A stretch of DNA of 64,000 bases from Amoebophrya sp. A120 (taxonomy: Eukaryota > Protista > Dinoflagellata): NCBI GenBank assembly GCA_905178155.1, contig CAJINV010000009.1, positions 979,415 to 1,043,414 on the forward strand. The letters run 5' to 3'. The translations under genes were made by a program, and so were the position numbers. The notes under the pieces were generated by a model, which was not told the DNA's origin, ran no database searches, and worked only from the letters and a program-made list of their open reading frames with translations. Positions 11,510 to 64,000 of this stretch are shown here, in pieces. The stretch's first letter is position 1; each line of letters begins with the position of its first letter.

Positions 11510-12680
11510 GCTTGGAGGGAAGCAAAAGCGACCCACAAGCCACATCAATACGAGTGGGCTGCCTAGACCCAAATTTCAGGAGCGAGAGCCCTATCAAAAA
11601 CAAAAAACTCCGGAGGTCCGGAAGCGAGAGCCACATCATGTTTCGAGAAAAGACATTCTGGCGCTGGTGGACCAAAAGAAGCGACTCACAAGCCGGAATA
11701 AGTTTGGCGGCGAGATCCAACTTTCCGCAAAACACCACCAAATACAAAAGAAACCTTCGGCAATCGCTAATCAAGATACGCGCCGTGTTTGGGGAAACGA
11801 AATGCCGGAGCTGGATCAGAAAAAGGCGACCCACGAGTCAGAATACAAGTGGGCGGCGTAGTTCCAAATTTGAGGAGAACTCCGCCAAAACCAAAAACCT
11901 CGGATATCGGTAATCCAGAGTCCCACCCTGTTTGGGGAAACGAAATGCCGGAGCTGGATCAGAAAAAGGCGACCCACGAGTCAGAATACAAGTGGGCGGC
12001 GTAGTTCCAAATTTGAGGAGAACTCCGCCAAAACCAAAAACCTCGGATATCAGTAATCCAGAGTCCCACCCTGTTTGGGGAAACGAAATGCCGGAGCTGG
12101 ATCAGAAAAAAGCGACCCACGAGTCAGAATACAAGGAAGTGGGCGGCGTAGTTCCAAATTTGAGGAGAACTCCGCCAAAACCAAAAACCTCGGATATCGG
12201 TAATCCAGAGTCCGACCCTGTTTGGGGAAACGAAATGCCGGAACTGGATCAGAAAAAGGCGACACACGAGTCAGAATACAAGTGGGCGGCGTAGTTCCAA
12301 ATTTGAGGAGAACTCCGCCAAAACCAAAAGCAAAAACCTCGGATATCGGTAATCCAGAGTCCCGCCCTGTTTGGGGAAACGAAATGCCGGAGCTGGATCA
12401 GAAAAAGGCGACCCACGAGTCAGAATACAAGCGGACAGTCTAGATCCAACTTTGAGGAGAAACCGACCAAAGTCGAAAACTCGGGAAATCGCTAATCAAG
12501 CCCCAACACGTCCTCTTTCGGGAAAATAACTGCCGGCACTGGATCAACAAAAGACGACCCACAAGTCAGAATCAAAGCGGGCTGCCAAGGTCCAACTCCA
12601 AATTTGAGGAGGAGCCCATCAGAAGCAAAAACTTCGGGAATCGGTAATGAAGAGACATGTCCTCTTTGGAGCAAAGAGGT
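11510..12680. repeat. Tandem repeat, 143-149 bp unit, ~5 near-identical copies with degenerate flanking copies
   Basis: TGTTTGGGGAAACGAAATGCCGG recurs at 11786, 11929, 12072, 12219 and 12368 (spacings 143, 143, 147, 149). Diverged copies on both sides. Confidence 0.95.
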
Positions 12681-13216
12681 GCCCGATATGAATCAAGAAA
12701 ACACAAACGATGCACACGCCAGAAGCTAAGCGAGCTTTCTTGTGTGCAGCTGAACCTCCTGCAGATGTCGAACAACTTTCCAGCACTTCTCCACACTGCA
12801 CGAATGCTTCGCCAAAGCTTCTTCCGGTTCCGGCAGAAGCAGATCCAGATCCGAGATCATTCCTACACAAAAACAGAAGCAAATCAGCCAAACAAATGGA
12901 GGTCTGTCGGGATGCAGCTCAGGGTGCGTTGGTGTTTTTTTTGTTTCTCGGGGGTGTGAGGATGGGAATTGGTATGGGTATCTCATCAAAATTATAAACT
13001 CGGCTTCGCTCGTGCTATCTCGCTTGGAGCAGTACACCGGGCTTAAAACGACAAACAACGAACAGATGAAATCGAAGTGCTTGCTAATTGAAGGGGTATG
13101 AGTTTTTCACTTCCATTCATCGGTGATCGCCTTCGTCGGGTGCTGGTACATCTGGGCGGGGGCGGGTACAACACAAAAACTTAGTCGCTTGTTTGACGCA
13201 GCCGGTGCGCACTGCC

Positions 13217-34300: not shown

Positions 34301-37300
34301 CCGGAAACAACCGTAGCTGCGTTCGAAGCAACACCAGCTGTGGCAGGGTGAGTGGCGCTCGCATGATCATCGTCTCTACTTGCAACAGCTGCGCCCTTGT
34401 CTAGCTCAACACCTTTCCCACGCCCACCTGCCGTCTCGGTAGAAGTTGCAGCAGCGGAAAGATCCGTTCTCGTTTTGCTCTTATTCTTCGGGTTTTGCGT
34501 GAACCATTTGTAACGGAACCAGCCAAGGACGTCCGGCTTCAGGTAAGTCCGCTCGGAAATCTTTGGAAGGTAAGCGCTATCTTTGAAATCGGCGTCCGGC
34601 ATCCGCACCCAACCATCTTCAGGCGGTAGCATGTGCCGCACAAGATTCGCATATTTCTGGTTGCCATCCAGGGTGACAAACTTCTCGTAAGCGGAATACC
34701 CATCCGTGTCCTCCTCGCACAAGGACAAAGGCGAGGAAAAAGAATTCCCTCCGGACCCTTCCTTCTGCCACTCCCGCTGCGCGCGGCTCCACCGGTACAT
34801 CGTGCTCCCTCTACTCTTTCTCGTCGTACCGCCACCCTCTGTCTGTTTTTTCGCTTCTGCTGAGTCGGGGCGCGGGGCGACCTCCCGGTACATCATGCAG
34901 CGCGGCTTCACAGACTCCCCGGGTGCGCGATACTTTCCGCGCAGACATTGGGCATCAAAATTCAGTGCAAACTCCTGCTGGAGGAGCAAGTCCAAGATCT
35001 CTTTTCGCCGATGGCGCCGTGCCTCTTTCATGCTTTCCACATGCACAATCTTCGGTTTCACGACCTTTTCCCTGGGCTCGAGCTCGTACTTGAGCCTAGT
35101 ACAATCGTAGTAGTTGATCGTGGGACTGAGCTTCGCAAGACGGACGGCTGGCCTCACGATGTCCACCAGCTGGATGCAGTGGACGAAACACTTGTTCCAA
35201 TCGTAGAGATAGATCAGCCGGTCCTGCTTGCGGTTCAAAAACAGCCCCAGCTCGTAGCTGGCGTAGTCCAAAACCGGCTCAAAAAGATGCATGTCTTGCT
35301 CCCGACACTCCCCACCATGGTCGCGCGCGCGAACAGGGCGGGAGCGCAGCTGTTAATTGATAATTTTTGGATACAGCTGGAATTTCAAAAGTCTGTGGCC
35401 ATCGCGCTTACGTCCGTTCGTTGTGCACGACAAGAAACGAACCTGAATTATTAGACGGAAAAAGTTCTTAAATGCGAAGTACTCTCTTACCTCGCAGTGA
35501 TCTGGCGCCATTGTGTTTGTTGGTCCAAACATCGCTCCGTCTGTCTGATCGAAGAAGCAACCGCTCATGGTTTGCCGGCTGTAGCCAATGACCGGCTTCA
35601 GTACGTGCTCGGAAAAATCATCCAGCGAGATCCAGGCGGACACCTGGATCTCGCGCCACAACAAAGGTGCATCCTTGATGCCACTTTCCGTGTCTTCGAA
35701 CAGGCAAAAAGGCCCGTCTCGGAGGTCCTTTGTCGCGGCCTCTTCTTCTTCGGTCTTGATGATGCCGCCCCAGACCGGGCTTTCTTTCGTTTCCCGCATG
35801 CGCGCCCCCCGGGTAGTCTCGTCCTCCAGGACAGGCATCCACACCCGCACCACCAGATCGTGTTCCAGTAGTGTGAGATCCGGGCAAGGAAGCTTGTCAG
35901 GCCTCTTGATTTCGAGGGCAGAACTGTCGCCGTCTTCTTCCACACCTAGGGCAGTTGTCGACAACCCTTTATTTGAACTGCCTGTGGAGGAGGGTGAGCC
36001 TGAAGCTGAACCCCCGCTGGCACGAGCGAATGCACGGTCCTGGTCTTCGTCGTCGTCCTCCTCTGCCGCGCTGTCCAAGAGACACAGCAGTTCCTTTCGT
36101 TTCAAACTCAGCAGTTCGGCTTTCCGCTGAGCCCGCAGTTTGTGGTATTGGATCTCTGGTGGCGTGAAGAAATTGGAATCGCGCACATACTTATTCATCG
36201 TCCGCATCCATGTGGGGCGAGAAGTAGATGAAGAGCTCATTTTACCTGAGCCGGTTGATGAAGATGTCGCGAGGCTTGGATTTTTTACGGCCCCCTTCTT
36301 GATGACGGACGAGGAACTACTGGTGTCAGGGTTGATATCAGCGCGCGCCGCGGGCTGCTGAAGCTGGCGGAATTCTTCCGCAACGCGCTTGTTTATCTTT
36401 TCGTCAGGGCGATCCGTCGCAGGCGTAGCGGGGCTCAGAATAATTCCTCTTTTGTTGGACACGATAAATTTCTCCAGGTACCCGGCTAAACCCCAACCGA
36501 AATGAATCCCAGTGAGGGAGCTGGGTAGAGGAAGTAAGGCGTCTTCTTCGTTGCAGATCCAGGCCTCGACATTCAACGTGGATTCGCGCTGCACCCGCTG
36601 CAACTTCAGAAAACCCTTATTCTCGGGGTGCTCACCCACCATCACCTTTTCGGGCATCTTGTGCTGAATGCGCTCCACGAGAAAATTCTCAGGCTGGTTG
36701 TCGGAACTTGCTTCATCGCCAGCATCCAGGAGCAGTTTTTTCGTTTTCTCCCCGTCGTTCCCCGTTTCGTCAGCTCCTTTGAGGGCAGTCGTGCTATCAT
36801 CAACATCAACTTCTTCCGCAGGGTTTGACTTGGTCCTCGTGAAAAACCCCAGAAGGGAAGTTGTAGACGAGTTCGATTTGTTCGCTGGCGAGGGTTTAGC
36901 CGTCTTCTTCGCGACTGCTAGTGGTTTTGGGTAGTTATCCGCTTGTTTTGCCTTTTCTTTTTCAAAACTCTCGGAGGAAGTTTTTCTTGCAGGTCCTTCC
37001 TTATGCTCTGAAGTTGTCCTGGTCGTGCAGCGGTCATGCTTGACGAAGTGCTTGTAGTATGTCGCAGCCATTTTCAGGTCCTTCCGCCGCTGCGAATTTT
37101 GCTCGTCGTCTTGCAAGGCAAGCACCTGCACGTCCTTCCCCTGTTCCTTGGTCGTGCGGCAGAAAAGCGGGCACAGTAAGCCGATCAGTATCAAATGTAA
37201 AAATGTCTGGGTCTGGAAACTTGTGGTGCTGGGTGGCGTCTCATGATGAGGCTAGAGATGGTGGCTCAGCATGACAAGTTTCTGAGCTCCTAGGTGTTGC

Positions 37301-40300
37301 CTATTCTGCATGACAAACTGCGCTTCTGCATCACAGAAAAACGGAGCTCTTGGGTAACGTGCATGACAGATCTAAGAGGTATGCCAGACATGCATGACAA
37401 ACATGAATTCTCCCAGACCCAGACATTTTTACAGTTGATAATCAGCAAGCAGTGGCAATAGCTGGTGGGATTCGTCCGGTAGCAGTACAGCAGCTCATGC
37501 GGCTTGTCAAAGGGTGAAAACGTCAAATGCGGCGTCACGGCCTTGTACTGCACGCCTTCTTGCAAAAGCTGCTTGCTGTTTTCCCACTTGTTGAAAAACA
37601 GCGAGAGGCTGCGCCGCTCCGCATCTAGCCACTCCATGACGTTCTTCTTTGACTTTTCCTCATCAATCTCACCGTTTGGCAGCGCGACCAGACACTCCCG
37701 CGGCGGAGGTTGGCCGAAGAGTTCTTCCCCGAAAAAATTTGTGAGCTTTGCGGCGCGACGCTCCAGCGGTGGGCTGTTGAGATCAATAGCTTCAGACTTG
37801 ACTCCTTGTTTTTCTGACCACTTATTCTTGCTTTTTGCAGTTTTTGTTGTCGCCGTCGCAATAGTCGTGGGGGTGACACGTTTGCCTGCCGCAGCGGTGT
37901 AGTCTGACAGACACGACTGCGCGTTGCCGCCCGCCACGGCTTGCGCAATCGAGTCTACCATAGCAGAGAAGGAGGCAGAACGATCATCTTCAATCTCCAC
38001 GGTTTCCAACATAACGCGTAACGGAGCGTCATCATCTAAAACCTTATCCAGCATGTAATACTTGAAGACCGCGAAGTCCACGAGGAAGTTCTGCAATTTC
38101 GTTTTGTTTTTCGTGACTTCGTCTATGAACTCCTTGTCATCCCAGACTGTGAACGATTCGGACAGCCGCGGATCTGTTTGCAACAGCTGCTTCTGGCTAA
38201 ATTTGAAAGTGGGCACAAAGGCCCAACGCGGATTCTTCGCCTCGTCGATCTGCTTGTACTGGAAACTGAAGAAGTGCGGTTCCAAAATTTTCGCGACGAC
38301 TGTAGGGTTGCCGTTGAGCGCAGTGGGCGTTCGGACCTGGACGATGCTGTCACTCCACCCGTTCTTTCCCGCGACGTAGGTGATCTCGTTCGGATTTTTC
38401 GAAGGTCCAGTTTTCGTCGACTCTTCTCCGTCTTGGCGCCCGGTGTCCAGCTGCGATCCGGAGCCTGCCCTCGTTTTCGTCGTCGAAGTTGTTTTGCAAC
38501 CTTTACCCTCTGGTGGTGCAGCTTGATCGGCCCCAGCTTTCTTGCACAATTTGGCCATCGCTTTGATATTCGTGGCGGCTTCCGCCTGCAGTTCCTCTAC
38601 AGTGGCGTTTTCAGACATTGACGCGATGCGTCGATCCATTGCTGCTACGTCGGAGGCACTATTGCTCCCTGTATTTTCAACGCCGCCAGCATGCTCTTTC
38701 CGTATTGCAGTCAGAATGTCATCGAATTTGAAATCATCCATTTTGCCCTTCAAAGGACTGAGGGAACTGGTTTTGTCCAGAATCGGCATGACTTTCTCTA
38801 CTTCCTTTTCTTGCTTGGCCTTGGAGGATGTGCCGGCAATAGTCGTGGCATTCGTCGCTCGCGCCGCCGTGGAGAAGGCACAACGGCGCGGGATATTTTT
38901 CATAACTATATTGTCCGACAAACTTTTTTTTGTATATTTTCGCGGTATATATATATGGTGCGGGATATTTTTCGTGGTATTGTCCGACAAAAGATGTCCA
39001 TTTTCGCCGTCCTCTGAGCGGGTGTGGGAAGAATTTTCGCCGTCCTGCATGGACTTCGGAGAATTTCGCTGCGCCCTCGAGGTGTTATCTTCGTCACGAC
39101 TTTTTGCGATGCTTGCGTCCGTACAATCTTTTCTGCCGTCCCGTACTTCATCTTTCTTCTCTCCCAGTGGTGGGTGCCCATCGTGAGTTTCCTGTGATAG
39201 GACGCCACCCTCACTTGCCTCCATTGCGCCAGTAATAAAAACTTCAAGAGCGGCCGAGTCGATGGAGCCAGGTGGCCCTCCTTGTTCCTGTATGATTTGT
39301 GGAACGACCTGGCTCAAATAACCGACAAATTTCTTCGGCCCTAAGTTCATCATTTCTTCTAGCGAGAAGTCTGTAAGCAATCTCTTTCTCGCAATGTCTG
39401 TTATGTCGCCGAAACTTTTCCCCGGGAACAATGTCGCAAAGTCTGTTGCAGAAAAATCCTTTTGGAAAGGGTCTATCCCAAAGGTAGCGCCGCGCGCCTC
39501 CACGTGGCCCATTGCGTCCTTCCTGGCAGCAGACGCGTCTTTCTCCGACTGCTGGGATGAATTGTTCTTTTCCTGCAAACTCGAGTTAGGCGAGTTTCTC
39601 GCCGTGCTGGGCTTTCCGTCGTCACCTTTCGCGCAGATGTAGTTTCTGTCCTCCGTGCAATCGTTTTCATCGCCTTTCTGTGTTTCGTCTTTCTTCTCTC
39701 CCCGAAGTGCCGGCTCATCGTGGCTTTCTTTCGATGGAACGACGCCTCCACTTGCATCCGCCGCACCTCCACGTAGTTTCCGTGTCGTTTCGTCTTCCGT
39801 GCCTCCGATCGATACTGAAGCTTTCAGTGGAACGACAGGAACAGTTTTTGAGTCTTTCTCCGGCAGCTGACTTTTATCGGCAGTCATGTCCGCGAAGGCG
39901 CTTTTTACCATGCTCGCTGCGACTTCCAAAAACCGGGCCATGGCGTCTTCCAGAAACCGTGCCATTGCGTATCCGAAACCGAACTCCTTGAAGGCCGAGT
40001 CGTCGACTTTCCCCTCTTGGTCGGCCGGTTTCGGTTCGACTTGAAGATTACTCGCATTTATTCGAAGCCGGCTCTCCTCCTTGTATCCCAGCAGCACCGG
40101 ACGGTTCTGAAGCTCTCCGCTCGCCCGCAGCTTCTGCACTTCGCACGTCATATGGAACACCGCATCTTGGTCGAACAACGTTTTCCCCTGGTTGTCTTCC
40201 TCGGCTAGGAAAAGGCAAAGTTCCTGCAGCATCACCTGCAGCTTCAGTGCGCAAAACCCGGTCGCCTGTGCCATGGAGGCGGGATTGTTCTGCAGCTCTA

Positions 40301-43300: not shown

Positions 43301-46300
43301 TGCTTTTCCCCGCCACAGATCGGGTTCACGTGCGTGTTCCCGAGCAAGTAGGGGCGAATTTCGGAGTCGAAGAATTCCCCGGTCACGCACCAGTCGAACA
43401 CTTGTTCGTTCTTTTCGCACACGAGCAACCGGCGCGTAAACTCGACCGGGTCGACGAGACTCCTCGCAGTCGTGTCCCAGGGCGAGAATTTCCACTGGGT
43501 GCTGTTCCGGGTCTCCGGATCGGAGTAGAAGAGCCGAAAGTCTCGCACTTCCTCATCGGTCATGGAGCAGCACAACGTGTTCCGTGCCATGTTCGCCCGG
43601 TTGGGATCGATGATCACACGCACAGAGAAGACCTGCTTCAGCTCGTCGTAACCTAACAACACAGCCTCCGCAATGCCGTTCTCTTTCAGCAGGGCTGGAA
43701 ACTTAATGTTGTTGAAGCCGATGTTATTTTTAGTGGCAGACGTTGAAGATGTACTACTAGAGGCTGCTGTGGTAGTTGCTCCGTCTGCTACGCCACCTGT
43801 GCTCGGTGTGTTTGATGTTGTTGCACCACCAGCTCCAGCGCTGGTATGGGGGCTATAGGCACACGTACTACTGGGGGAAGCGCAATAGTACGATTTTAAA
43901 GTTTGCTCCCAGGATTCCATGTGGCGAACAAGAATGATGTCGCCCCTGCGGATCTCCCGCTCCACACTCAGCCCACTGCGGCGCGTCAGACAAGATCTGT
44001 CAACTTGGAACAGCATGTCTTTGTCCTTCGAATCTTCGAAAATCTATCCTGAGTAAAAACGTACCCACACCAGAGTCAGGATGAGGATTTTGCAACACAA
44101 ACCTAGGAGCTTTGTGAGTCACGCATGACATAAACAGACTGTGCTGCTACGGGAATGGCATTGTGTTTCGGGTGAGTTGATCAACCCAAAGACGCCGCCA
44201 CCCCGGGCCCAACGGACCTGGCACTCCAAACTATCCTCCTCACACACACACACGCACCAACTTATTTGCAGTGAGTCACGCATGACAAGCTGCACTATGC
44301 AGTGTAGTGCAGGTTAGCAAGTGCAGCCGCATCACAGATTCGTCTGCTCATCCTGTTCACAGCATCACAAATTCCAAAACACGACTGGAAATGGCTCTCA
44401 TGGGGATGCGCATTACAAGTCTTCCTGTCTTTGCAAATCTGCATTACAACTCTGGTGTGGGTACGTTTTTACTCAGGATAAAATCCGAGTCTTCGCGATC
44501 CGCCGGAAGGTCGCCATGGGTGTCTCAAAATCCTCCGGGTTCTTCGGTGCCTTACCCGCTTTACTACTGGAATTTGTACTGAGTGACGTCGAGTCGTTCG
44601 CCGTGTTAATAGTACTTCCTGGAGGGAGGGCTGATTGGTTTTTTTGTAATTTACAATTTACACCTTTGAGCAGTTTCTTCTCTGACGCCACTCGCTGCTC
44701 TGACAAGCACTGCTTCGGCAGTGGGCGGTGTAGCAACCTCGCGTCCGGTATCCAAGAAAAAACACCCATCCCCATCCATTTTGTGCATGACAAACACATG
44801 ATTTGATGCGTCCTTTGCATGACAAATTGGATGTGGATGGGTCTTTTTCTGTGGATATCCGGTTTGTGTGCGTAGTAAAAAAACTCTCGCAGGCCCGGGC
44901 CGCACACCTGCGACTGAAAGGTGTTAAACTTCGCCGGCTTCCCGATGGGAATCAATGTTCGGAACTCCATGATGTATTTACAGTCCTCCCAGTTATATCC
45001 GACGATTTTGGCACCTTCGTCGTCCAACATGGAGTCCGTCTGTGTGCATCCCGAGTTTTCCACCTGTACGATCTCTCCTGGCCCAAAATCAAACGGAACG
45101 AACTTCCAGAAAAATTGGCTTCCCTCATCTGCGTTTTTGTTGCGGTTCTCCCGTGCTGCTGTGTTTTTCGATTTGAAGTCCTCGTCTTGTGAAGAGGAAG
45201 AGCCTGCTTGATGTTGTTGTCCTAGCTTTTTCCCCACAATTGGTTTCGCAGCTGCGGACGCGGAGTTCTTTGTACTGCAGGAGCTACTATCCGCTACTTC
45301 ATCATTGTTCGGAAGGACATTGTCCTGGCAATTGCTCCAGATGGAAATATTGACGGGCTCCGGGTCGCCTTCCGTTGTCGTTTTCACGGACAGAATGCGT
45401 TCCCGTAGGTACAAAGCCCGAAACGTACAGTAATTCTTCATCAGCAGCACGTTTTTCCGACTGCTGAGGTTCTTCGCGTTTTCGAAGTACTTGCTCACGT
45501 CCGCGCTGCTGTTCAGGTTTTCCTTGCTCTTCTCGTTTTTCGTGTTCGCCGCCGCAGCCCCGCCACTGCCCAGCAGATCGTCCAGCAGGGTGTCGGCCGC
45601 CTTCCACGCGGAAATTTCCTTGTCGTTCAGGTATCAAAATGAAAAATCCCCCCACCCCATATCAAAACGAAGTTTGTGATGCTGGACTTGCGTACACAAA
45701 TCAGATTTGTCTTGCTGGAGAGGACTGCAGGCCCATACTAAGCCTGAGCAGAAAGGTTTTGGGCTAGGGTCTTAGCATCAGAAGCGTCTGCGCTGTAGGC
45801 CCAACAGCATCACAAATCGCCTGCATAAAGCGGCGGAGCCTGTGGAGGTGCCTTCTTGCAAGACAGAGATGATTTGTGGTCGCAAATCAGCATTGCAAAT
45901 TTTCTGCTACGTACCTTTTCGATATGGGGAGGGGGGATTTTTCCTCACAATATTAGGGGGGTCGAGTGCTTGCCTCTATCCGCGACCAGCATTGCGGCCA
46001 GTTTCCGAAACATGAACTCGGCTTCCTGGTACTCGGCGTCCTTTGTCTTCTTGTCTTCGTCCGTGACCACATCTCCCGTCACCGGAAGGTTGTTTGTCAG
46101 GTCAAAAAAAGGAAACTCTGCAACATTAGTAATATCAAAGTTGAACAACTCTCGCTGTTGGTCCTCCGAAGATGTCGTCGCGTTGCTATTGCCGGACGAC
46201 GTCGAAGATGTCTTACTACTCTTCTGCTTAATATTCGCCTTGTTATTTCCCGCACCGGCTCGGCCAGCTGCAACGTCTTTGCTGCTCAGGTGCATTTTCC

Positions 46301-52403: not shown

Positions 52404-55254
52404 CTAGATCAAGTTCTCCTCGAGATCTGGGTTGCTGGTCAAGCGAGCTTCTTTCCAGCCGTACACTCCGCTCGCAACGACGAACGCCATCGCCACCCAG
52501 GCAAGGCACGTGGAAAACGACCACATGGAAAAGATCGCCCCCGAGTTGTCAGAGGCAGGGGACTCGGTTTTCTCTACCAGTAGCTGTTTCATTTTGGGAG
52601 CCAGCGCCAAATTTTGAGAAGCACGGGAGGCTGCTTCTGCATCAATTTTACTTGCTCCGGACGACGTGCTAGTCGAAGACGCCGTCGCGGCGACATGCGC
52701 AGCCGTGTTACCGCCAGCGAGCGCCACTAGCGGAACTTCCTTGAAATCCTTGGACTCAGGTGCGGGCGCGTTATCTTGCATGTCGAAGACCACCTTCAAC
52801 GGTTCATCGGCTTTACCCGGCGCGAACAGTTGGAAGTCGACGAAGCACGGCTCGTCAAAATAGCCCTTGCTCGCATCCGCATTCCCGCTTTTGCCCGTGA
52901 CACAACCATACCTCAGTAATTCAAAGAGATTAAATGCGTTTGTGCGTGCCACCTACACATACGTATGTTGCGCGTAACCACTACAGTTACAGGCACAGGC
53001 TCATCCGCGTTAGTTTTCTATAGCCAGATCATATTTATTAGTACAAAAGTGCTAAAAAAATACCAGACATAGATCATCGGCGCGGCTCCACCGCCTCCGT
53101 AGGCGACACTTCCGAAACGCGATGGCGCGATGCCGGACGAGATTCCGGGAGCAAAAAAGCTCTGCATCCCGATTTTCCCGAGCAGAGTAGTCATCTCTTT
53201 CGGTGACTCCGGCGTCGCGAACACATTGTAGGAGTTGTCCGCGTACACATCGTCGACGAATGTACCCCACTTCGGAATGGTATCGATCTTCTGGTGCAAA
53301 TTGTCCCACTTTTTGCTGAATTCCGAGATGTCCTTGGGCACGGCCTGCTGCTTCTGATCTCCTTTGTAGAAGCCCATGGGAATGGAAATGTCGCACTTGA
53401 ACTGCCAACCGTTGCTGCAGCTCTTCTCCTCACTCCCGGAATACTCGTAAATGTAGTATTGGTGGAAGCACACTCGGTCACTGTCCCCCATAGTGCACCA
53501 GTCGTAGAGGAGAAAGAACGGCTTCGTCGGGTCCGCGTAGCCACCTTTCGCCTGTCCGATGTAGGGCCCCTGCCGAGAGGGAGCTGGATAGGCTGTCATG
53601 GTCGCGAACGACTCTGGTGTGTACAGAAACATCGACTGCAAGATCGCCTCGTGGCCACAGAAGCTGACCATGCTCCCCTTGTCGTACCCGTAAACACAAG
53701 CGTCGGGCGCGTACCAGTTTTCGATCAGCTCTGTGCCCTGCTTCGAGTCCCAGCCGTGCGTCAGCACCACGTGTTTCATGTGCTTCATGTGTTCCTCGGG
53801 CGTGTCCGCCGGCGCTGGCACCGCCTCGACCACTTTCACCGGCGGGAGCTTGACCTCCGGTTCGGGCGCCTGGAATTCGTACACGATCTTGTATTTCCCC
53901 TCTTCATTCTTCTGCACGAAAAAAATGTCGATGAAGCAGGGCGGCCCCAGTGCTGGGTCCTCGTAGATTTGCCACTTCTTCGGGCCCCGCAAGTGCTCTA
54001 AGCACCCGTACCACATGGCAACCGCCGGTGCTGTGGACCCTTTCGGCGTCTCGGAGAACAACACCGTGCCCCGCCGGAACGCGCTGCCCACGCCGTCGAA
54101 GGGCGCGAAGAAGTCCAGAATTTCGCCCTTCTTGTTGGAAAGCACCTGCAGCGACCAATCTTCCGAGCCTGCTGCCGGCAACGGGATCGTCGTGTAGGCG
54201 TCGGGGGCGTAGGCGTCTTTGAGCAGCTTCCCCCAGGTTTTCCCGTCAAACGCTTCGAGTACGAGAAAAACGTCCTTGTACAACTCGGGCGGCATGGCCA
54301 CGGGAGCCGTCACCGAGCCCGTCGGCGATTTGTCGGCGATGGTCAGACCGCCGTGGAGCACGGCAAAATCCGCTGTGATCTTCCACTTTTTCGCGTCAGG
54401 GGAGTACTTGTAGACAAACGCCTGGTGGTAGCACCCCGAAGCACCCGGCAACGGGCTCTCCAGGCACCAACTCCACTGCCCAAATAGGGGCTTTTCCGGG
54501 TCCGTCATCTTCCCTTCTTCAAGGAGGGGCCCGACTGCGAACTGCGCCCCTTCCATCAATTTCATGGTCTTCCTATGAACTGCAAAAGCAACGTACTCGT
54601 ATAAATGCATTACAAATTTCCTTAGCATCAGTGATAAAATTTGTAATGCGGATTTACCTTAAGACAAAAATTTGTAATGCATGATTCCAATACGAGTACG
54701 ATACTTTTGCACAGGATACTTCCACTGCTCCTTGGGGTATTGCTGCAGGGCAGAAATCATGGCCGCGCGGTCGCACACCTGCACCATCGGTGGGCTGCCC
54801 ATCCCGGGATTGGGCTGGTACACGCAGGCGTCTCTGGCGTACCTGTGAAAAACAAATAGAAGCAAACAGGATGAGGCTTTTGTTTTCGATATGCTTTCGC
54901 TTCGTGAGCCGTAGCAAGCAAGAATACTATGTGGTGCAAACACACTTGTTGTCATTGATGCTGGCCCGGAATTATGGCGCTTTTAAAGGGGGCAACCCAT
55001 ACCCAGTTCGAGGAGTGAAAAGACACACTGACGCTCACTCTCCTCGAGAACCAAAAGTCCTCGTGCTCCCTAAAACTAGTGTGGTACCATTCCTCCAGGT
55101 ACTCTTGGCCTTCCTTTGTGTCGAATCCCCGCGTGCCGGCAGTTTTCCAATCATCAAAGAAGCTCTTGGCGTCCGGCGGAGGCACTCCCCCGGCTGCAAC
55201 GCCACAAAAGGTCGCCGAAGCGGCAGGCCAGAAAATTCTACTTCTTCGGGCCAT
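52404..55254 (-). CDS. Secreted/surface protein with a duplicated module (four NTF2/SnoaL-like units) and a C-terminal TM segment, 4 exons
   Basis: Signal-like N-terminus. Recurring WYARDACVY/YAPDAY/WYAPDACVY/YADNSY, WYGC twice and PCF(I/V)D twice; TM segment near the C-terminus. Introns 54843-55087 (GT-AG), ~54574-54723 (TIR type) and 52912-53063 (GT-AG). Fold assignment is an inference. Confidence 0.75.
54574..54718. mobile_element. TIR intron, 145 bp, TSD CTTCC
   Basis: TAT...TGCAAAAG(C/T)A(A/T)CGTACTCGTAT...TGCATTACAAATTT inverted at both ends. CTTCC at 54569-54573 and 54719-54723. Removal gives EQWKTMKLMEG. Confidence 0.92.
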
Positions 55255-55849: not shown

Positions 55850-57424
55850 TCACGTCAAGGTTATTATCGGTGTAGTCACTGTCTCATGCCATTTTCTTAC
55901 TGCTTTTTGATTTTCGGACTGCTCATACAGTTCCGACTCCTCCGCTCGTTGCAGCATCTTCGACTTTTTTCGACAATATTTCGGACAGTTTGCAAATATC
56001 TTGGCCATCCGAATCTTTGTCATTGGCTTCAATCGGTCCAACCAGCTGTCCAAGTTTTGCTCGAAATTCGTGCAGCTTTGAAACATGCAAGACAACTTTG
56101 TTGCGCTTGAGACATCCCAGTTATCCATGGGTTGGTTGTAGGCACGGCAGCCCTCAAACATGCCCGTCATGTCGTGACACTCCCCAACATCCCAGTCCGC
56201 TACGCTCTGGTTGAACGCGGCACAACCGGAGAACGCGAACGATAGGTCAAAACACTTGGAAACGTTCAGGTGGTTCACTGGCTGATTAAAGGCGAAGCAA
56301 TCGCAAAAGAGGGCGCTACCATTCTGGAGAGATGCCGTGTCCCACCCTCCAACCGGTTGGTTGAAGCGGTAGCAGTGGCCGAACATCCCTGATGCGTCCA
56401 CGACGGACCGCATGTCCCAGTCAGATACCTCGGAATTGAAGCGGTCGCAGTTCCCAAACATACCCTCCATGGAAGTGACGTTAGTTGTGCACCACCCGGA
56501 GATGTCGCACTCAAACCAGGCGATGCCTGCGAAGAGTTCTCTTAGGCTGGAGACGCGCGAAACGTCCCAGGTGACCATAGGGCCGTGTTTGTCCGTGATG
56601 TCCTGCCACTTCTGCTCCATCTCCGCTCTCGTCAGGTGCTGGTATGCGGCATTCAGCTCGAAGGAGTGTCCGTCGTCTTTCCTCCAAATAACGCGCTCTG
56701 CCACTATATATTGATGTTCCGTTGTGATACTATCTGTCACCCACTCTCGGTGAATCCAATCTTTTTCCTCAGCCGGAATGGTCATCCAAAAACAGAAAAG
56801 CTCGATCGCGTCATCAAGCTCTGCGCGTGTTGCAAACGGCTCGAACTCCTTCTCGTAAAACCTAACAAACTGGTCTATGTCGCTCGTGCTCGCGACAGCA
56901 GTCGCGTCTTCACCTTCACCTTCTGTATCTGCTTGCTCAGCCTCACAATTCATCTTGTCCATTGTATTTTGTTCATCGGTAATATTTGCGGCCTCCGCAG
57001 CGGATGACAGCTCTGTTGCGGCTGCTAGCTCGGGGAGATCGATCATAAATGTGCGCGGCTTGCGGACCTGCAACGGTTGCAACAGCGCGGAGTGGTCATC
57101 CCGGCCTTGAGCAGCACCTGCAGGTTTGCATATCCCTTCCCCTCCTTCGGAACTCTCTGCCACTTCATCTCCTGTTCTTTCGTCGTTCCTTGCCCGTACC
57201 GCCAACTCCGACCGCGGGTCCACCACGAGCTCGACTAGCTGCCACGCCCGTGGCCGCTCCAGTCCTCTCTCCGACGCAGACCGCGCCGCGACGGCCCGTT
57301 TGATTTGCTCCACCGAGACCTCCGGTGCGTCGAACTCTAACACAATAGTCTGCTCGAAATCGTGCAGACGGTGCAGAGTAAGTGTGTACTTCTCTTCGCC
57401 TTCCACCTCCATGTGCTGCGCCAT
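55850..57424 (-). CDS. BspA-like/DUF285 repeat protein
   Basis: ~7 tandem ~25-aa repeats of the W(D)xSxVxxMxxMFxxCxxFNQ type (WDVSRVSSLRELF, WCTTNVTSMEGMFGNCDRFNS, etc.). Confidence 0.9.
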   Translation of the reverse strand: MAQHMEVEGEEKYTLTLHRLHDFEQTIVLEFDAPEVSVEQIKRAVAARSASERGLERPRAWQLVELVVDPRSELAVRARNDERTGDEVAESSEGGEGICKPAGAAQGRDDHSALLQPLQVRKPRTFMIDLPELAAATELSSAAEAANITDEQNTMDKMNCEAEQADTEGEGEDATAVASTSDIDQFVRFYEKEFEPFATRAELDDAIELFCFWMTIPAEEKDWIHREWVTDSITTEHQYIVAERVIWRKDDGHSFELNAAYQHLTRAEMEQKWQDITDKHGPMVTWDVSRVSSLRELFAGIAWFECDISGWCTTNVTSMEGMFGNCDRFNSEVSDWDMRSVVDASGMFGHCYRFNQPVGGWDTASLQNGSALFCDCFAFNQPVNHLNVSKCFDLSFAFSGCAAFNQSVADWDVGECHDMTGMFEGCRAYNQPMDNWDVSSATKLSCMFQSCTNFEQNLDSWLDRLKPMTKIRMAKIFANCPKYCRKKSKMLQRAEESELYEQSENQKAVRKWHETVTTPIITLT

Positions 57425-58089
57425 GAGGATTTGCGAAAGTAAGGAGCTAGCAGTATCTTACGTATCGTCCCAGTCAGTGTAGTTCCAGGAAGTCGAACTG
57501 ATCTAGCTGCAAGTAAAATGCTGTGCCTCTTCGAAATGCGCGGCTAGTGGAGTCCTATCGTTCTAGTGAAACTTGAAGTCGCAGTTTTTATCATAGTGAA
57601 GTAGAACGTAAAAACAGCCCATGGATCACATACTTGCGTGCCATACAGTAAACATGCACTGTCCTTACACGATGTACGTGTACCTGCCCTGCGATTCAAA
57701 TCATTGCTTTTGCGGCCCTTTTTGTGGAAAATGAAATCCACACGAACTCAAAAGCAAATCGCCTGGACAGTAGAACCAGTTCTATCTTCTCGGCTGACCA
57801 CAGGAGTGAGGACAACATCATGATCTTGAAGTTTTCTGATGCATAGCTCAGCACATCAGCTTTCATTTTCAAGACCAGTTCCAGTATTCCGCTTGAAACT
57901 TTCACGTCTTTTTTTTTTTCATCATGACAGACACTTTTGGTTCGATTAGAAGAGTGATAAATTCCGATCGGTTCGCGCCAAAAGCACGACCTTCAACGGT
58001 ACTGTAGCTCTAGGTTTAAACATAGAAAATTGCATCGCTCAAGAAAGAATTTTATGTACTTGTTACGGCATTACCCAAATAAAATGTTT

Positions 58090-58875
58090 TCACTGCTGAG
58101 TGCAGGTTTTCGAAACCCTTTCCCAACCTTTCGATAAGTTCTTCATCTCTTCTAGGGAGACGGGATAAGCACCAAGAACCTTTATGGATTCCGAAACCGA
58201 ATCACCTCCCGCCACCTCCGTCTCCTGTTCCTCCTCTGCGGATTCTTCTTCAGCAGCTTCGTCCTTTACTGCTATTGTGGCAGGAGGAGGAGGAGGACCT
58301 GTACAACCTTGTGGAAGCTTAGCGACTGCCGAGACAAAGTCTGCGATGTGCTCCTTCCCCGCATCGGGCACAGTGTGCATGGGTAGATCGATTCCCACCA
58401 ACGCTTGCCACTGCTGCGGCGACATGCCAGGCGTCATGTATAGGCTGTGGTAGGCCTTGTCAAACTGAGACTGGGGCGTGGGGGTGGCGAAAGCGTCCAT
58501 TCCTGGCAGAGAACTAAGCACCGCTTGGTCTCTCGTTTTTTTCGGCGCACCAGCCTGCTTCGAGGCAAGCGTAGAGCGAGGTTGGCCATGCATCAACGGC
58601 GACACAAACTCGCGCACCAAGTAGCTAAGGTAGGGTACTTGGTGGAAAAATTTCTGCACAGCGGGGTGCTTTTGGATCATGTACTTGTTTGACGATGTGT
58701 CCTCAGTAGAAGTCGTCTTCCCCGGAACTCCGCTGTGGTCGAGCCAAAGGCTGGCCGCGCAGTTTTCCAAACCAGCTATGGGAAGGCTTTCTGGAGGCAG
58801 GCACTCCTGCTGCATCAGGTACATGAAGGGGGCGATGTGCGGCCGCTCCGTTTCGGACCGAAAAATTTGCCCACA
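58090..58875 (-). CDS. 3' exon of a hypothetical gene; upstream exon lies beyond the window end
   Basis: Protein-like frame CGQIFRSETERPH...KTCTQQ. The ORF-track extension to 59118 lies inside a TIR element and is probably not coding. Confidence 0.65.
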   Translation of the reverse strand, partial: CGQIFRSETERPHIAPFMYLMQQECLPPESLPIAGLENCAASLWLDHSGVPGKTTSTEDTSSNKYMIQKHPAVQKFFHQVPYLSYLVREFVSPLMHGQPRSTLASKQAGAPKKTRDQAVLSSLPGMDAFATPTPQSQFDKAYHSLYMTPGMSPQQWQALVGIDLPMHTVPDAGKEHIADFVSAVAKLPQGCTGPPPPPATIAVKDEAAEEESAEEEQETEVAGGDSVSESIKVLGAYPVSLEEMKNLSKGWERVSKTCTQQ

Positions 58876-58935
58876 TATCAAATGGAAAAATGTCTGGGTC
58901 TGGAAGATTGCCAGGTTTGTCATGCACATTTTGCA

Positions 58936-61900
58936 CCTTGATATTCCCGATTCACACTCGGGGGAATTTTTTCTGGCTTGGAGACCCCCTCCCACCCCCC
59001 CGATCTCGGATGTGCGTGAGCCCAAGAAAGTCCAAGGACTTGAAACATGCAAACATTTATGCGTGAGGGCTGCAGAGTCGCATGAAAAACAAAAAACTCT
59101 GAGCGAGCTGCACCGCACATGCGCGACCGAACGAGCGAGAAGTAATCAACAAGAAACTAGAGATAGAGGTGTGCGGCACCTCAAGGCACTTATGATGGCG
59201 ACGAGAAGATGAAGTAGTTTTGTTTTTTTGAATTGTCAGACATTTACGTATTACGGTATAAAACAGGTCAGCACTACCTCGATTGCGGTGTTTGCAAAGC
59301 GAAGCGGTAGCTGTAAGTTGAATTTTTTGTTCGTCATCATGGAGCTTTAGTGTGTCCACATGAGTGTCGCGGGATCTAAGAGCCCATCTATGCGCCCGCC
59401 TCATGGAGCACGCTGTGTGCCAGGAACGGGGCCGGGCATAAAAAGCGGGGTGCGGCCCCTTGAAATAGGTGGACTTATTATTAATTATTTCTTATATGCA
59501 GCCAAAAGAGAGCACACACGCGCGCGGTGAGTGGGTGGAGTCCTTGGGTGCGGCCCGACCGAAACCACCACTGCACCCGCCTAGAGATAGCAAAAAGAAA
59601 CTTGGTGCTTCCGGGTGCGGCCCATCAGCGAGTAAATAGAGTGGCTGCCTCTAAGGGCGGTAAAAGGTAGAAGCTAAAGGCTAAAAAGTATCTATCAACG
59701 ACCGACCCCGATCAGCCCGTTGGCAAGACGAAAAAAAAACATCTGCCCCTGCAACAAATGCGGGGTCCGCCACCTAGCGCTACAAGGATTCCAGAAGTAA
59801 GCAAGACGACGAGAAAGAAGTAAAAGGGTAGAGACCTGCATCTACGTGGGAACGCGGGGAAAGCAGGGAAGATCCGGCATTTCAGCATGAGGAGCGTACG
59901 AATTTGCGATCTAGCTCCATCGGGGGCGGTAGGTACTCACGAACGAAGAGCAATGGCAACGAAGTGCAGCAGTCTTTCGCGAGACCAAACGAGATGGCAA
60001 GCGAGGTCCGCGCGCCCCCCCTGGAGGTGAGATGCGAGGGTGGCCCTGTATTGTGATCTGCAATCTGCATTAGACCACACAGGAAATGAGGATGTTGGAG
60101 AAGGATCCTAGATGAACATGAGCGACACTAAGGAACGCTCCAACAACCTCAGCCAACCACTGCCCTCGCATTCACAAGAGACCTGCCAAGGCAGACTCAA
60201 CTCCGGAGAATCTTCCCGAAGCCGACCTCTAAGTTCGGCCTGGTCGGCAACGAGGCAATGTCCTCAGGGGCCGTTAGGAACCTCCCGAAACAACCGTCAA
60301 CGAGCTCCAGCGCCAGGAAGCCGCTGACGAGAGAAACGCACAGACTGTTCCCAGTGGCAAGAACAGAAAGGCAGGGACATAGGTGAACCGACAGTGACAC
60401 CAACTCGACCAAGGTAACCCAGAGTTCCGGACCCGGGGAACACTGGGGACCACGCGGCAGGAGCGCAGCACAAAGACGCCTGAAGTGTTCCCAACCGCCA
60501 GTCAAGCAGCAGCCAAAAGTCAACGGAGGCAGCAGCAGAAGCCACTCAGGTACTCCACCGAAGACGAGAGGAGCCGCAAGACCCAGAGCAAGCTCCGACG
60601 GCCACAACAGACGCTTCTACTGTCGCAACACCACTGGGGACGAAGACAGAGGGCAAGGCAAGAGCCTCGCGCAACGGGAATTTCCCACCGAGCCATGTCA
60701 ACGACCTCACATGAGAAGGCGCACCAGGACGGCCACGAGAGGGGATAATCTAAGGCACCCCGCATTCAGCCCCGTCTACACCACCGAGGACGACGAGCAT
60801 CTCTCGTCATTATGTTCACCGGATCCATCGTCAAAAATTCACGTCGTGCACGCCGCTCTGCCTCGAGGCATTGTCACTCGTCCGCTAGACACACTCCCAC
60901 TCCACTTCGATGGAAGGCCAGACATCGCGACAACATAGCACAGCAGGGTTAGGAGTGGCTGTGCTGAGTCGCGTCTGGAGAGGGAAGCTTTAAGGAGCAC
61001 CAGGCTGCCCGATTGTCCTATTTGGGCGAGTTTTGTTGTCGCCCCCGACCGCCCCCCGTCGCGGTAGCTGGCATCACTTCTGCTCGGGGAAGCCGTCTAG
61101 CCCTCGGCCATGGCAGAGGCTTCTGTCTGTCAATCGCATACCGGGCGTCGCATGTGTACGCGGCTAAGGTTTCCGAAGTTGCTGCGTGTCGTCTTTCGCT
61201 CGTAGCAGATAGGTTTGTAGTAAGTATGGAACTGTAAAAGGCAAGGCAGAAATGTGCTTGATCCTGATGCGAGAAGGCTGGAATTAGAGCGGCCATGGCT
61301 GAGCATGACACGACTTTCACTACATCTTCCGCAATACATGAGATGTCAGCATGACAAACCGATGTTTTTGTAGTTTGATTTTCTATAACGCATCACTTGA
61401 CATCCAAGAAAACAGAAGGAAGAGGAAGCTAGAGAAAGACCGAGCTTCTGCCTTGACTTACGCCTCAGATATTTTGTTGGATCCATCCGGCGATGCCGTG
61501 GTGGAAGCTTGCCCCCTCCACCCTGTTTCAACACTACAAGAACTGAGTGCGCCGGCCCACACAATTCGAAGTGATATACGTTGGGCTCCTGCGCTCATGC
61601 TCGTCGTCAGCGTCGATAGCTGCGAGCAACACTTATCTCATCGCCGGATCCGTCGCCGCTCGCTCTCGACGGCACTGGCCTCCGCTCGCATCCGCCGCAT
61701 GGCTCCGCCTAGGTGTGGCCGCGCGACAGCAAGGTCAGAAAGTCTTCGCGCCGCAACCTCGTAAGCCATTCCCACATCGACACTTCTCGTGTACAGCGGC
61801 AGAAACTAGGCGCGGAGCCGCAAGTAGTGAGTGTCTGTTTGTCTTCAGACACGACCTGAAACTGGAAAACTGCTTCGCTGAGCTCGAGTGCGAGGTAAGC

Positions 61901-63806
61901 CCGGGAACGTAACCCGCCGCGCAAACTAGGTGTGGGGCCGCAAGTGACGCACGCCTGTTTGTCTTCAGACACGAGCTGAAAATGGAAAACCACTGCGCCG
62001 GACTCGAGGACTACCTGGGAACTTAACTCGCACCCCTGGCGAGGGCGAGCAGAAACTAGGCGCGGAGCCGCCAGTAGTGAGTGTCTGTTTGTCTTCAGAC
62101 ACGACCTGAAACTGGAAAACTGCTTCGCTGAGCTCGAGTGCGAGGTAAGCCCGGGAAAGTAACCCGCCGCGAAAACTAGGTATTGGGCCGCAAGTGACGC
62201 ACGCCTGTTTGTCTTCAGACACGAGCTGAAAGTGGAAAACCACTGCGCCGGACTCGAGGACAGCCTGGGAACTTGACTCGCACCCCGGGCGAGGACGGGG
62301 GACGCGATTTAGCATTAGAAGAGGGCCTTGCTGTGGGGCTGGCAGTCGATGTCCATCAAGGCCGCGCTTGTTGCTGGATAATCTTATGGTCGCGCTCGGG
62401 ATAGGAAAGCTGGTGCGTAGTGAGGTCTGTTTACTGAGGAGATATACGTTCATGTTATGCGGATCGCCGATCTGAAAAACGCATGACAGAAACACGCCAA
62501 GCACAGGGAGGCAAGGCCGAACAAGACACAACCGAGAAAAAAGAAAACGGAAACCCAATACGCAAGTGGAAAGCGACATGTGCACGGACCTCGCCAGCAG
62601 CTTTGAGCAGACATATCTTGCCCCAGTTGACGACGCGGAGGATGTGTATCGGTTCTCCGCGTTGCACTACCAATTGCACCCAAAAGGAGGGCGCCTCCCG
62701 TCCTGCAGCTGTGCACTAGCATAGACACGTTTGCCGTAGCAACGGGATAGACACGTCTTCATTTTTTCACTGCGAGGAGTCGCCGACGGGCGCGTCCGCT
62801 TTTAAATCGCTCCTTGTCCGCTCGTGATTGCGCTCAGCTCTTGGGCTCGGTCTGGATGCGTCGGCTGTCATCTTGTCCTCATTTCAAGAAACCAGATGTG
62901 TTGCCAGTGGGGTTACATTGAAGTCTCTCACGCGGAGACCAAGACCGCTCCGCTTGCGGCCACCGGGCTTGCGCCTGCGAAGAGTCTGACCCGGCTTCCG
63001 TACGTGGCAGGACCTAGGAACACGGCGACTTGTTCCCAGTTCACAGCAAGCGTTCAACTTTAGGTCGTAGGAGGCTCGCCCAGGTGAAGATGTATAGTAG
63101 CAGACGCAGTCAACTTAAGTACAAGGCAAAGAGACATCGCTTAATCGAACCTACTCAGTGCTTTGAGGTCGTGCTCAGTGCTTTGAGGTCGTAAGCGGCC
63201 CTAATTTTCAGAGACCGAGAGCACCGCCAGAAGGGAGCCCGGCTAGCCGCGTCTCGCGGATTTACGTCCACGCCCATCTTTTCATGACCCGACTGCAGAA
63301 GGCCGGGGGCTGGTTAGCGGGCTGCCGTCACCACCCTGCGTCGCGGCCCCTTCGACGTCGTGCTCCTCCATCGGCACCACGACGACTTCTATTGATTCCG
63401 GTGGCGCTCCCTGCACAGGCGGGAGGCTAGGCTCGTTTTGGGAGGCGCGTTGCGTGTTCATTTCGTCGATCTCGCTGTCCTGCGTCGCGACGTGACATAG
63501 GAACTCACTAATTGCCTGCGAGGGAGCATCGAAGGGGTTCGGAGCAACGTTCTGCGGATCCGATAGCAGCGCATCGATGCGACTGATGTCGATCAACTCG
63601 TGTAGGCCGTCATCGCTTGTACTGGCTCCCACCTCGTCCCGGAAACCTTCGTGGGATCTCGTGATTAATGCCGCGAGAGCCCGCGCTTCTTCGTCGTCAA
63701 CTGGCCGCTCTTCCCGCTCTTGGCGGGCCGGGGAGGGTGGAGGCCATTCGTCTTCCCCCAGGCCTTCTGGCCCTGATGCATCTTCCCCCAGGCCTTCGTC
63801 TTCCCC
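58936..63806. mobile_element. Nested ~4.87-kb insertion flanked by the 15-bp direct repeat CATGCACATTTTGCA
   Basis: Exact repeat at 58921-58935 and 63807-63821. No intact transposase, RT or integrase ORF inside. Confidence 0.65.
61799..62293. repeat. 250-bp tandem duplication made of ~120-130-bp subunits (ABAB)
   Basis: GCAGAAACTAGGCGCGGAGCCGC at 61799 and 62049. CTGTTTGTCTTCAGACACGA occurs four times. Confidence 0.93.
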
Positions 63807-63809
63807 CAT
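63282..63809 (-). pseudogene. Acidic/Pro-rich ORF fragment abutting the insertion boundary
   Basis: ~175 protein-like codons. The ATG falls inside the 15-bp direct repeat, suggesting a 5'-truncated or captured coding fragment. Confidence 0.4.
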
Positions 63810-64000
63810 GCACATTTTGCATGACTCCTGATGTCTGTGATGCATGCCCTAGCATCACAGATTTTGTGAGGGCTTCCTGATGCCTATACCGCATGACAAA
63901 TGCTCTTTCCGTGTAGCAAAACTTGGACTCTCTTTGCTGCTCATGCAATACAGATTTTTTTAGAATCCAAAATCAGCATGACAAGTTGATTCTTCCAGAC

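Follow-up and report, generated by a model that had tools for sequence, protein, structure and literature searches.

Transposons that target other transposons are known. In Xenopus laevis, the Tx1L and Tx2L retrotransposons, which lack long terminal repeats (non-LTR), target Tx1D DNA transposons (PMC6719617), and Tx1L is the closest precedent for the locus described here, in that a retro-type insert occupies a non-autonomous DNA transposon as a safe haven. In the dinoflagellate Amoebophrya sp. A120, introners have been described as many-copy elements with inverted repeats that open with TAT, As after seven bases, a 3-5-nt direct repeat and non-canonical ends (Farhat et al., 2021, PMC7789003; all papers cited here are drawn on in part). 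That work analysed introns of 40-1000 bp, and the parts of it covered here describe neither nested inserts nor a preferred insertion site. Long A120 introner families, including family 38, were later reported as introns of several kilobases bounded by terminal inverted repeats (TIRs) and were treated as transposon families whose mechanism is unknown (Gozashti et al., 2025, PMC12130899); alignments of A120 families with 100-300-bp units were 3.8-7.1 kb wide, with matches to long interspersed nuclear elements (LINE), Gypsy or Maverick. The word 'nested' is absent from the main text of that paper, and our literature search, which covered the published A120 supplements in part, found no work on inserts nested in dinoflagellate introners. 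We analysed a 64-kb stretch of A120 DNA (hereafter the window) in which a 4,871-bp insert (58936-63806) lies inside an introner that itself interrupts a coding exon. As far as the Tx1L and Tx2L source goes, the insert differs from those elements in having no sequence link to them and no apurinic/apyrimidinic endonuclease (APE) or reverse transcriptase (RT) frame, and in that its target is itself an intron in a coding exon, so that splicing would provide the safety.

We compared the sequence on either side of the insert with other introners. The left TIR arm (58876-58925) runs from the terminal TAT to an inner GTCATGC motif, and the remainder of the element (63822-64000) has GCATGAC repeats in its interior and leads into the right TIR, whose first part (63976-64000) is cut by the end of the window. 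An uninterrupted sibling of 252 bp at 37189-37440, which has the duplication ATCAG and whose removal restores the reading frame, served as comparator, and the left end of the split introner matched its TIR at 29/30 and 44/51 bases. Collapsing the split element leaves 239 bp to the window end, all of which align at 97.5% with a complete 262-bp introner (locus L048) in a second public assembly. This confirmed the proposal of the preliminary description that the collapsed element measures about 260 bp and resembles 37189-37440 in size and TIR. By comparison with L048, ~22 bases of right TIR are predicted beyond 64000; the candidate 5-bp target duplication of the introner, CCACA (58871-58875), is predicted to have its second copy just past that point, as siblings in the window have 5-bp duplications. 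Because the collapsed element matches L048 so closely, the reconstructed empty site is the normal sequence of the family. The empty form was also present in A120 reads, where 11 contigs of run X1 join 58920 to 63807, these being family members and not necessarily this locus, and thousands of X1 contigs fall on the introner arms. With TIRs opening in TAT and an A stretch, a complete left arm and many genomic copies, the host element has the build described for A120 introners (PMC7789003). The host of the insert is an ordinary TIR introner in a coding exon.

The insert is flanked by a 15-bp direct repeat, CATGCACATTTTGCA, at 58921-58935 and 63807-63821. As claimed earlier, the repeat is exact, and it occurs at only those two places in the window; of the nine 15-mers in the window whose copies lie over 1 kb from each other, seven are shared introner repeats, one is A-rich and one is this duplication. 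The first copy ends at the entry point GCA^ and would measure 13 bp if its first two bases are junction microhomology. We scanned the second assembly (contigs JACKZZ01) with the TIR pattern, which gave 146 stretches and delivered 143 loci with 186 distinct ends. A partner bearing a matching 5-bp duplication was found for 130/186 family ends, with 124/130 spanning 240-283 bp, and 117 introner copies in the 143 loci were complete. The 15-mer was present once in 6 of these 117 elements and twice in none. The palindromic site noted earlier does exist, but its description as 8-bp arms around a 5-bp spacer holds for the spacer of this copy alone: the family-wide form is 7-7-7, GTCATGC-N7-GCATGAC. 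It is perfect in 34 of the 117 elements, among which 15 spacers occur, and only seven of those 34 have a Watson-Crick eighth pair. The palindrome forms at the junction of the inner TIR motif with the first internal repeat and is no dedicated att site.

Contigs from two runs were aligned to the insert (115 records from X1, 11 from X3). The summed contig depth fell from 200-350 at the left of the insert to 21 at its right, with 26 in the flanking exon, bearing in mind that contig depth is no copy number and that a hole in coverage proves nothing. Up to eight variant contigs at one left-hand position indicate that the left part of the insert is repeated. One X3 contig (record 11; 1,978 nt) opens with 58 nt from the left arm of another introner, whose spacer differs, and continues with 58933-58964, 8 other letters and 59974-61852 with 9 differences and one gap (1.9 kb, ~99.5%), the lengths summing exactly. 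Entry is at the same GCA^ position, next to a spacer of seven bases different from that of the window, and this copy is an independent insertion, barring a crossover confined to three bases. An X1 contig with single-copy-like depth (27.9) joins 58938 to 63806 via 11 other letters, so that the same 15-bp duplication surrounds ~15 nt, and this short insert opens with the same three bases as the long one. The left junction GTCATGC-N7-GCA^TGAC is common to two long copies and one 15-nt insert.

The remaining joints in the read contigs divide the insert into modules, all placed on the minus strand, which is deduced from the fixed left end and the broken right end. Module A (58936-59973) is the multi-copy terminal part, and its length varies among copies: joints lead to a fixed point at 59974 from 58964, 59016, 59068 and 59569, and one joint leads from 59320 back to 58967. 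Module B (59974-63013) starts at this fixed breakpoint, is multi-copy to ~60700 and low-copy beyond, and includes two 250-bp tandem copies (61799-62297, 96% alike), each made of two related ~125-bp halves. Module C (63014-63806) contains an acidic frame (63282-63806, minus strand) that is open up to the junction; the module has another left flank in X3 record 15. The right end appears not to be fixed (X1 record 8). The first 760 nt of a contig of 12,678 nt correspond to 63014-63773, after which this contig diverges for 11.9 kb. The depth gradient and the 11.9-kb continuation fit variable 5' truncation, the right ends of other long copies lying outside the contigs seen. From these contigs, the left end of the insert is fixed and multi-copy, and the right end appears to break off mid-frame from a longer locus. 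Copy differences in the X1 contigs over 58917-63825 were skewed to plus-strand purine transitions (40/81 G>A or A>G vs 12 C>T or T>C), a skew that base composition may explain in part. The X3 contigs, whose status as RNA is a guess, cover most of the insert and none of 57401-58720, which would fit transcription of insert copies and carries no evidential weight.

The exon that the introner interrupts ends the host gene (58090-58875, minus strand). Its coding part, 58093-58875, is 100% identical to residues 887-1147 of an A120-labelled 1,147-residue protein (P0001) and is followed by the stop codon; it belongs to no Pfam family. Residues 1-886 of P0001 have no match anywhere in the window, and the published gene model therefore implies a single intron from 58876 to past 64000. 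This intron is ~5.15 kb long and the annotated protein skips all of it, in agreement with the earlier prediction of a single intron exceeding 5 kb. A 1,242-nt contig (X6), whose RNA status is a guess, matches 58010-58875 with zero differences and has 376 extra nt off the stretch; these fit what is expected of a spliced message. A raw RNA run (X10) matched only the TIR, left the host gene uncovered and has no bearing on expression. A homologue search returned nothing besides P0001 itself. One frame elsewhere in the window (43345-43425, minus strand) has a weak 28-residue likeness to P0001 residues 873-900, across the splice junction (pairwise E 0.015), which may be a motif common to neighbouring genes.

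Our preferred explanation, which we hold to be probable and well short of certain, is that the insert is a 5'-truncated, non-coding piece of a retroelement. Target-primed reverse transcription would have placed it at a favoured nick within the palindrome, in an intron which is skipped in its entirety by the gene model. A top-strand nick made by an endonuclease at CA^TG would release a 3' end, and this would prime the copying into cDNA of an RNA with its 3' end at 58936, such that the insert would be the cDNA of a minus-strand RNA. The enzyme would then stall or jump between templates, going from stretches of module A that differ in length to module B at its fixed start and on to module C, and would stop mid-frame at 63806. 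A second nick 13-15 bases away would yield the duplication. Since the TIRs remain intact, the 5.15-kb intron would still be removed and the insertion tolerated. Target-primed reverse transcription yields just this combination (PMC2881922): one end is fixed, the other is broken, the spacer of the target is duplicated, and pieces anchored at their 3' ends are joined. To that extent the earlier suggestion of a retroelement with a 15-bp target site duplication is in keeping with the data. The explanation is also favoured by the lack of a TIR in the insert and by introners of the second assembly, described below, whose inserts bear poly(A) or simple-repeat tails or target duplications of 14-21 bp. 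The mobilising enzyme is not encoded in the insert and may lie in the 11.9-kb continuation of the 12.7-kb contig or be supplied in trans.

Several results weigh against this explanation. The preliminary description had reported no poly-A, and indeed there is neither a poly(A) nor a repeat tail, with no A/T run longer than 6 near either insert end. Among 15 frames of 55.8-64 kb (12 from the insert region), Pfam detected no RT, endonuclease or other family in the insert, and no RT motif was found within the 4,871 bp. The module C frame (searched as 63285-63806) had no homologue among 6,359 candidates (306-2000 aa) and 1.84 billion representatives, and the insert gave no Rfam match (0) and no hammerhead core with stem II. 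The joints listed include the junction of one other long copy; 28 loose ends lie beyond, and the targets of most copies are unseen. No X1 contig covers 63774-63805 and no piece bridges the stretch, so that the right junction of this locus is putative; at several sites in 61-63.7 kb the X1 contigs and the window disagree. The insert had no match in the 143 loci of the second assembly. What looks like aiming could come from a preference for the short motif CATG together with the survival of insertions that fall in introns, and the region is used by other families too. The fixed-point joints at 59974 equally fit deletions beside the end of a DNA transposon. Finally, the X6 contig may derive from an allele other than the filled one, whose splicing is putative.

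The insert was compared with described element classes, among them non-LTR retrotransposons. R2-type elements reportedly jump end to end between templates, a likeness for the joined 3'-anchored pieces. The target duplication and the fixed 3' junction are those of a non-LTR retrotransposon, and the insert lacks an RT, APE or restriction-like endonuclease (RLE) frame and a tail. It differs from general non-LTR insertions in having no poly(A) or repeat tail and in extending more than 4.3 kb from its 3' end without a recognisable coding domain. Elements of the Tx1 clade have a sequence-specific APE endonuclease and a Tx1-clade RT. A Tx1-like fixed site in a non-autonomous DNA transposon holds for both long copies with a junction seen, most copies being unseen; as the insert has no RT or endonuclease, it is not classifiable as Tx1 or even as a non-LTR retrotransposon. 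Non-LTR 3' ends may carry poly(A), short repeats or neither, and 5' truncation is frequent (PMC2881922). Within what that source covers, the insert resembles 5'-truncated non-LTR insertions in its fixed 3' end, apparently variable 5' end, target duplication and joined 3'-anchored pieces.

A codon model trained on the window's own long frames gave no insert window above 6 (best 5.5, in module C), a protein atlas held no usable match for the module C frame or for 60387-60935, and exact patterns of the left end of the insert occurred 0 times in metagenome contigs and 0 times in viral contigs. Penelope-like elements have direct repeats in the form of pseudo-LTRs (pLTRs), a hammerhead ribozyme and a GIY-YIG or HNH frame; the insert has no such repeats at its ends and no Rfam match, hammerhead core or Pfam match. 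The partial tandem joint from 59320 back to 58967 does resemble Penelope-like repeats. Helitrons make no target duplication and have a 3' CTRR after a hairpin. The insert, by comparison, has the 15-bp duplication, its left end is not CTRR, and only the inner boundary at 63014 reads CTAG. Lack of a target duplication in Helitrons is also stated in PMC12130899.

The main rival is that the T-rich spacer and CATG motifs of the introner form a general nicking hot spot, for retroelement endonucleases or for the introner's own transposase, and that breaks there are patched with any available template, including Penelope-type or host captures. The insert would be a mosaic capture, and introners would accumulate such events because selection purges insertions from other parts of exons. 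We regard this as unlikely. It draws on the second assembly, in which 11 introners hold other, unrelated inserts and two more have short local duplications. Automatic duplications of 7-9 bp at L059 (496 bp), L041, L132 and L022 were regarded as chance and excluded from the counts. One insert at L059 measures 691 bp and has a poly(A) tail and a 19-bp duplication; those at L007 (976 bp) and L130 (125 bp) have duplications of 21 bp and 14 bp. The L039 insert carries a simple-repeat tail, and its 8-bp duplication lies at a CATG; simple-repeat tails also occur at L091, L132 and L136. For six other inserts the far end lies outside the sequence covered, and one T-rich L059 insert has no clear duplication. 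These inserts indicate that retro-type insertion into introners of this kind is common in the lineage and that more than one family has its hot spot in the spacer region.

The positions of these junctions bear on the same rival. Four of the 11 lie 57-61 nt from the TIR, the others at ~41-195; the binomial value for the cluster is 4e-5 for an interval picked post hoc, and ~2e-3 after a 50-fold look-elsewhere factor. The L091 insert and the L072 local duplication break at the same CA^TG register as the insert in the window, and at L072 an 18-bp duplication surrounds 45 nt of locally derived filler. CATG itself is about three times denser in introners (21.4 per kb) than in the second-assembly loci overall (6.6 per kb). 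The hot spot would also suit the modular build of the insert, with module C next to another left flank in one contig. A random patch, however, would not give the same terminal sequence starting at the same base in two introner copies, and the capture of a Penelope-type template is opposed by the lack of pLTR-type direct repeats and of a hammerhead core. By eye, L039:676-911 and L091 are alike just inside the tail, although BLAST did not link them; the inserts at L039, L091, L132 and L136 are possibly a LINE or short interspersed nuclear element (SINE) family that favours CATG sites. The inserts at L059 (elements of 972 bp and 496 bp), L041, L007 and L130 are of the poly(A) type or have duplicated targets, three of them where the T-rich spacer ends.

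It is distinctly improbable that the insert is a target-selective DNA transposon with a long duplication, whose left end is intact and which acquired its variable joints, and lost its right end, through internal and one-sided deletions. Such a transposon would account for the fixed-point deletions at 59974, a right-TIR mimic is completed by the opening bases of the insert (14/18, by eye), and A120 has many TIR families, some of them kilobases long. The insert, on the other hand, has no TIR between its ends (best 17/60) and no transposase in the Pfam scan of the 12 frames of its region, and a duplication that abuts a broken right end requires truncation during insertion itself.

Integration of a circle by a site-specific recombinase at an att-like palindrome, which had been proposed earlier as the alternative to a retroelement, fits poorly, and we rate its chances as very small. 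Lambda-type core sites consist of inverted arms around a spacer, and the inverted 7-bp arms and 7-bp spacer resemble them, with a fixed entry point. Elements of the Crypton or att type, however, have a recombinase gene, two fixed ends and a core shared by all targets. Here the spacer differs from one target to the other, the window carries an exact duplication of its own, 15 spacers occur among the 34 perfect palindromes, the right end appears variable, the same 12 frames contain no recombinase, and no joint of right end to left end was found among the joints listed. With no spacer common to the targets and a right end that appears not to be fixed, an att-type recombinase is unlikely. In contig assembly, short links that lead into very deep repeats can be lost. 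That the right junction or the whole 4.9-kb path is an assembly chimera of several repeat copies is likewise very improbable, for although 63774-63805 has no contig, no piece spans the stretch and X1 contigs differ at several low-copy sites, the two halves of the introner, with their exact duplication, collapse into a single family member at 97.5%, and the A120 assembly used long reads (PMC7789003).

The introner arms that flank the insert can pair, with a folding energy of -35.3 kcal/mol compared with -16.5 +/- 3.7 and a minimum of -31.9 in 500 shuffles (last 22 bases missing), which is expected of any TIR pair and is no demonstration that pairing defines the splice. U1 snRNA was not detected in Amoebophrya according to the part of PMC7789003 covered here. 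Splicing of the 5-kb intron via long-range TIR pairing is plausible as a model. The novelty of a 5-kb non-canonical intron is lowered by the multi-kilobase TIR-bounded introns already on record for A120. At the left end, the first eight bases of the insert complete the mimic of the introner right TIR (14/18 against the left TIR, by eye), which creates a 68-bp pseudo-introner (58876-58943) without a matching duplication that could compete with long-range pairing. We considered 58926-58943 as the right end of a second introner and rejected it, as X3 record 11 assigns everything from 58936 onward to the insert.

The preliminary description held that a second mobile element targets introners. The nesting of such a multi-copy element in an introner and its presence at the same position in another are supported; the aiming itself is less secure, as the copies are few and other families use the region. 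The proposal that introners serve as an aimed-at safe harbour draws on the sequences of two long copies and one 15-nt event. In its full form, a retroelement family would aim at one nucleotide of the introner palindrome and use introns as self-renewing landing pads in coding exons, while a splicing machinery without U1 would remove the 5-kb intron by TIR pairing across the insert and ignore a near-perfect decoy TIR 68 bases from the left end. We offer this tentatively and think it somewhat doubtful. If it is true, a parasite could reach the gene bodies of a compact genome cheaply, and the multi-kilobase chimeric A120 introner families of unknown mechanism would have a plain explanation; nested insertion may account for some long A120 introner families. 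The locus is also a natural experiment on non-canonical intron definition, in which the same TIRs are separated by either 260 bp or 5.1 kb and a local hairpin competes. What sets it apart among transposons that target transposons is that the target forms an intron in a coding exon.

The window contains further introners. Elements of the form TAT...ATA with 5-bp duplications lie at 37189-37440, 44045-44480, 44749-44857 and 54574-54718, of which the last three belong to other families and 44045-44480 and 44749-44857 carry the internal GCATGAC motif. A further introner-like element at 45632-~45951 has TIR-like arms, and no exact duplication was found for it. A tandem array at 11524-12701 with a 143-bp unit comprises 5.4 well-kept copies and diverged ones in an AT-richer stretch with few long frames. 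An uninterrupted minus-strand frame at 55850-57457 encodes DUF285 repeats (Pfam E 4.8e-52), and DUF285, at 55853-57457, was the sole Pfam family above cut-off among the 15 frames of 55.8-64 kb.

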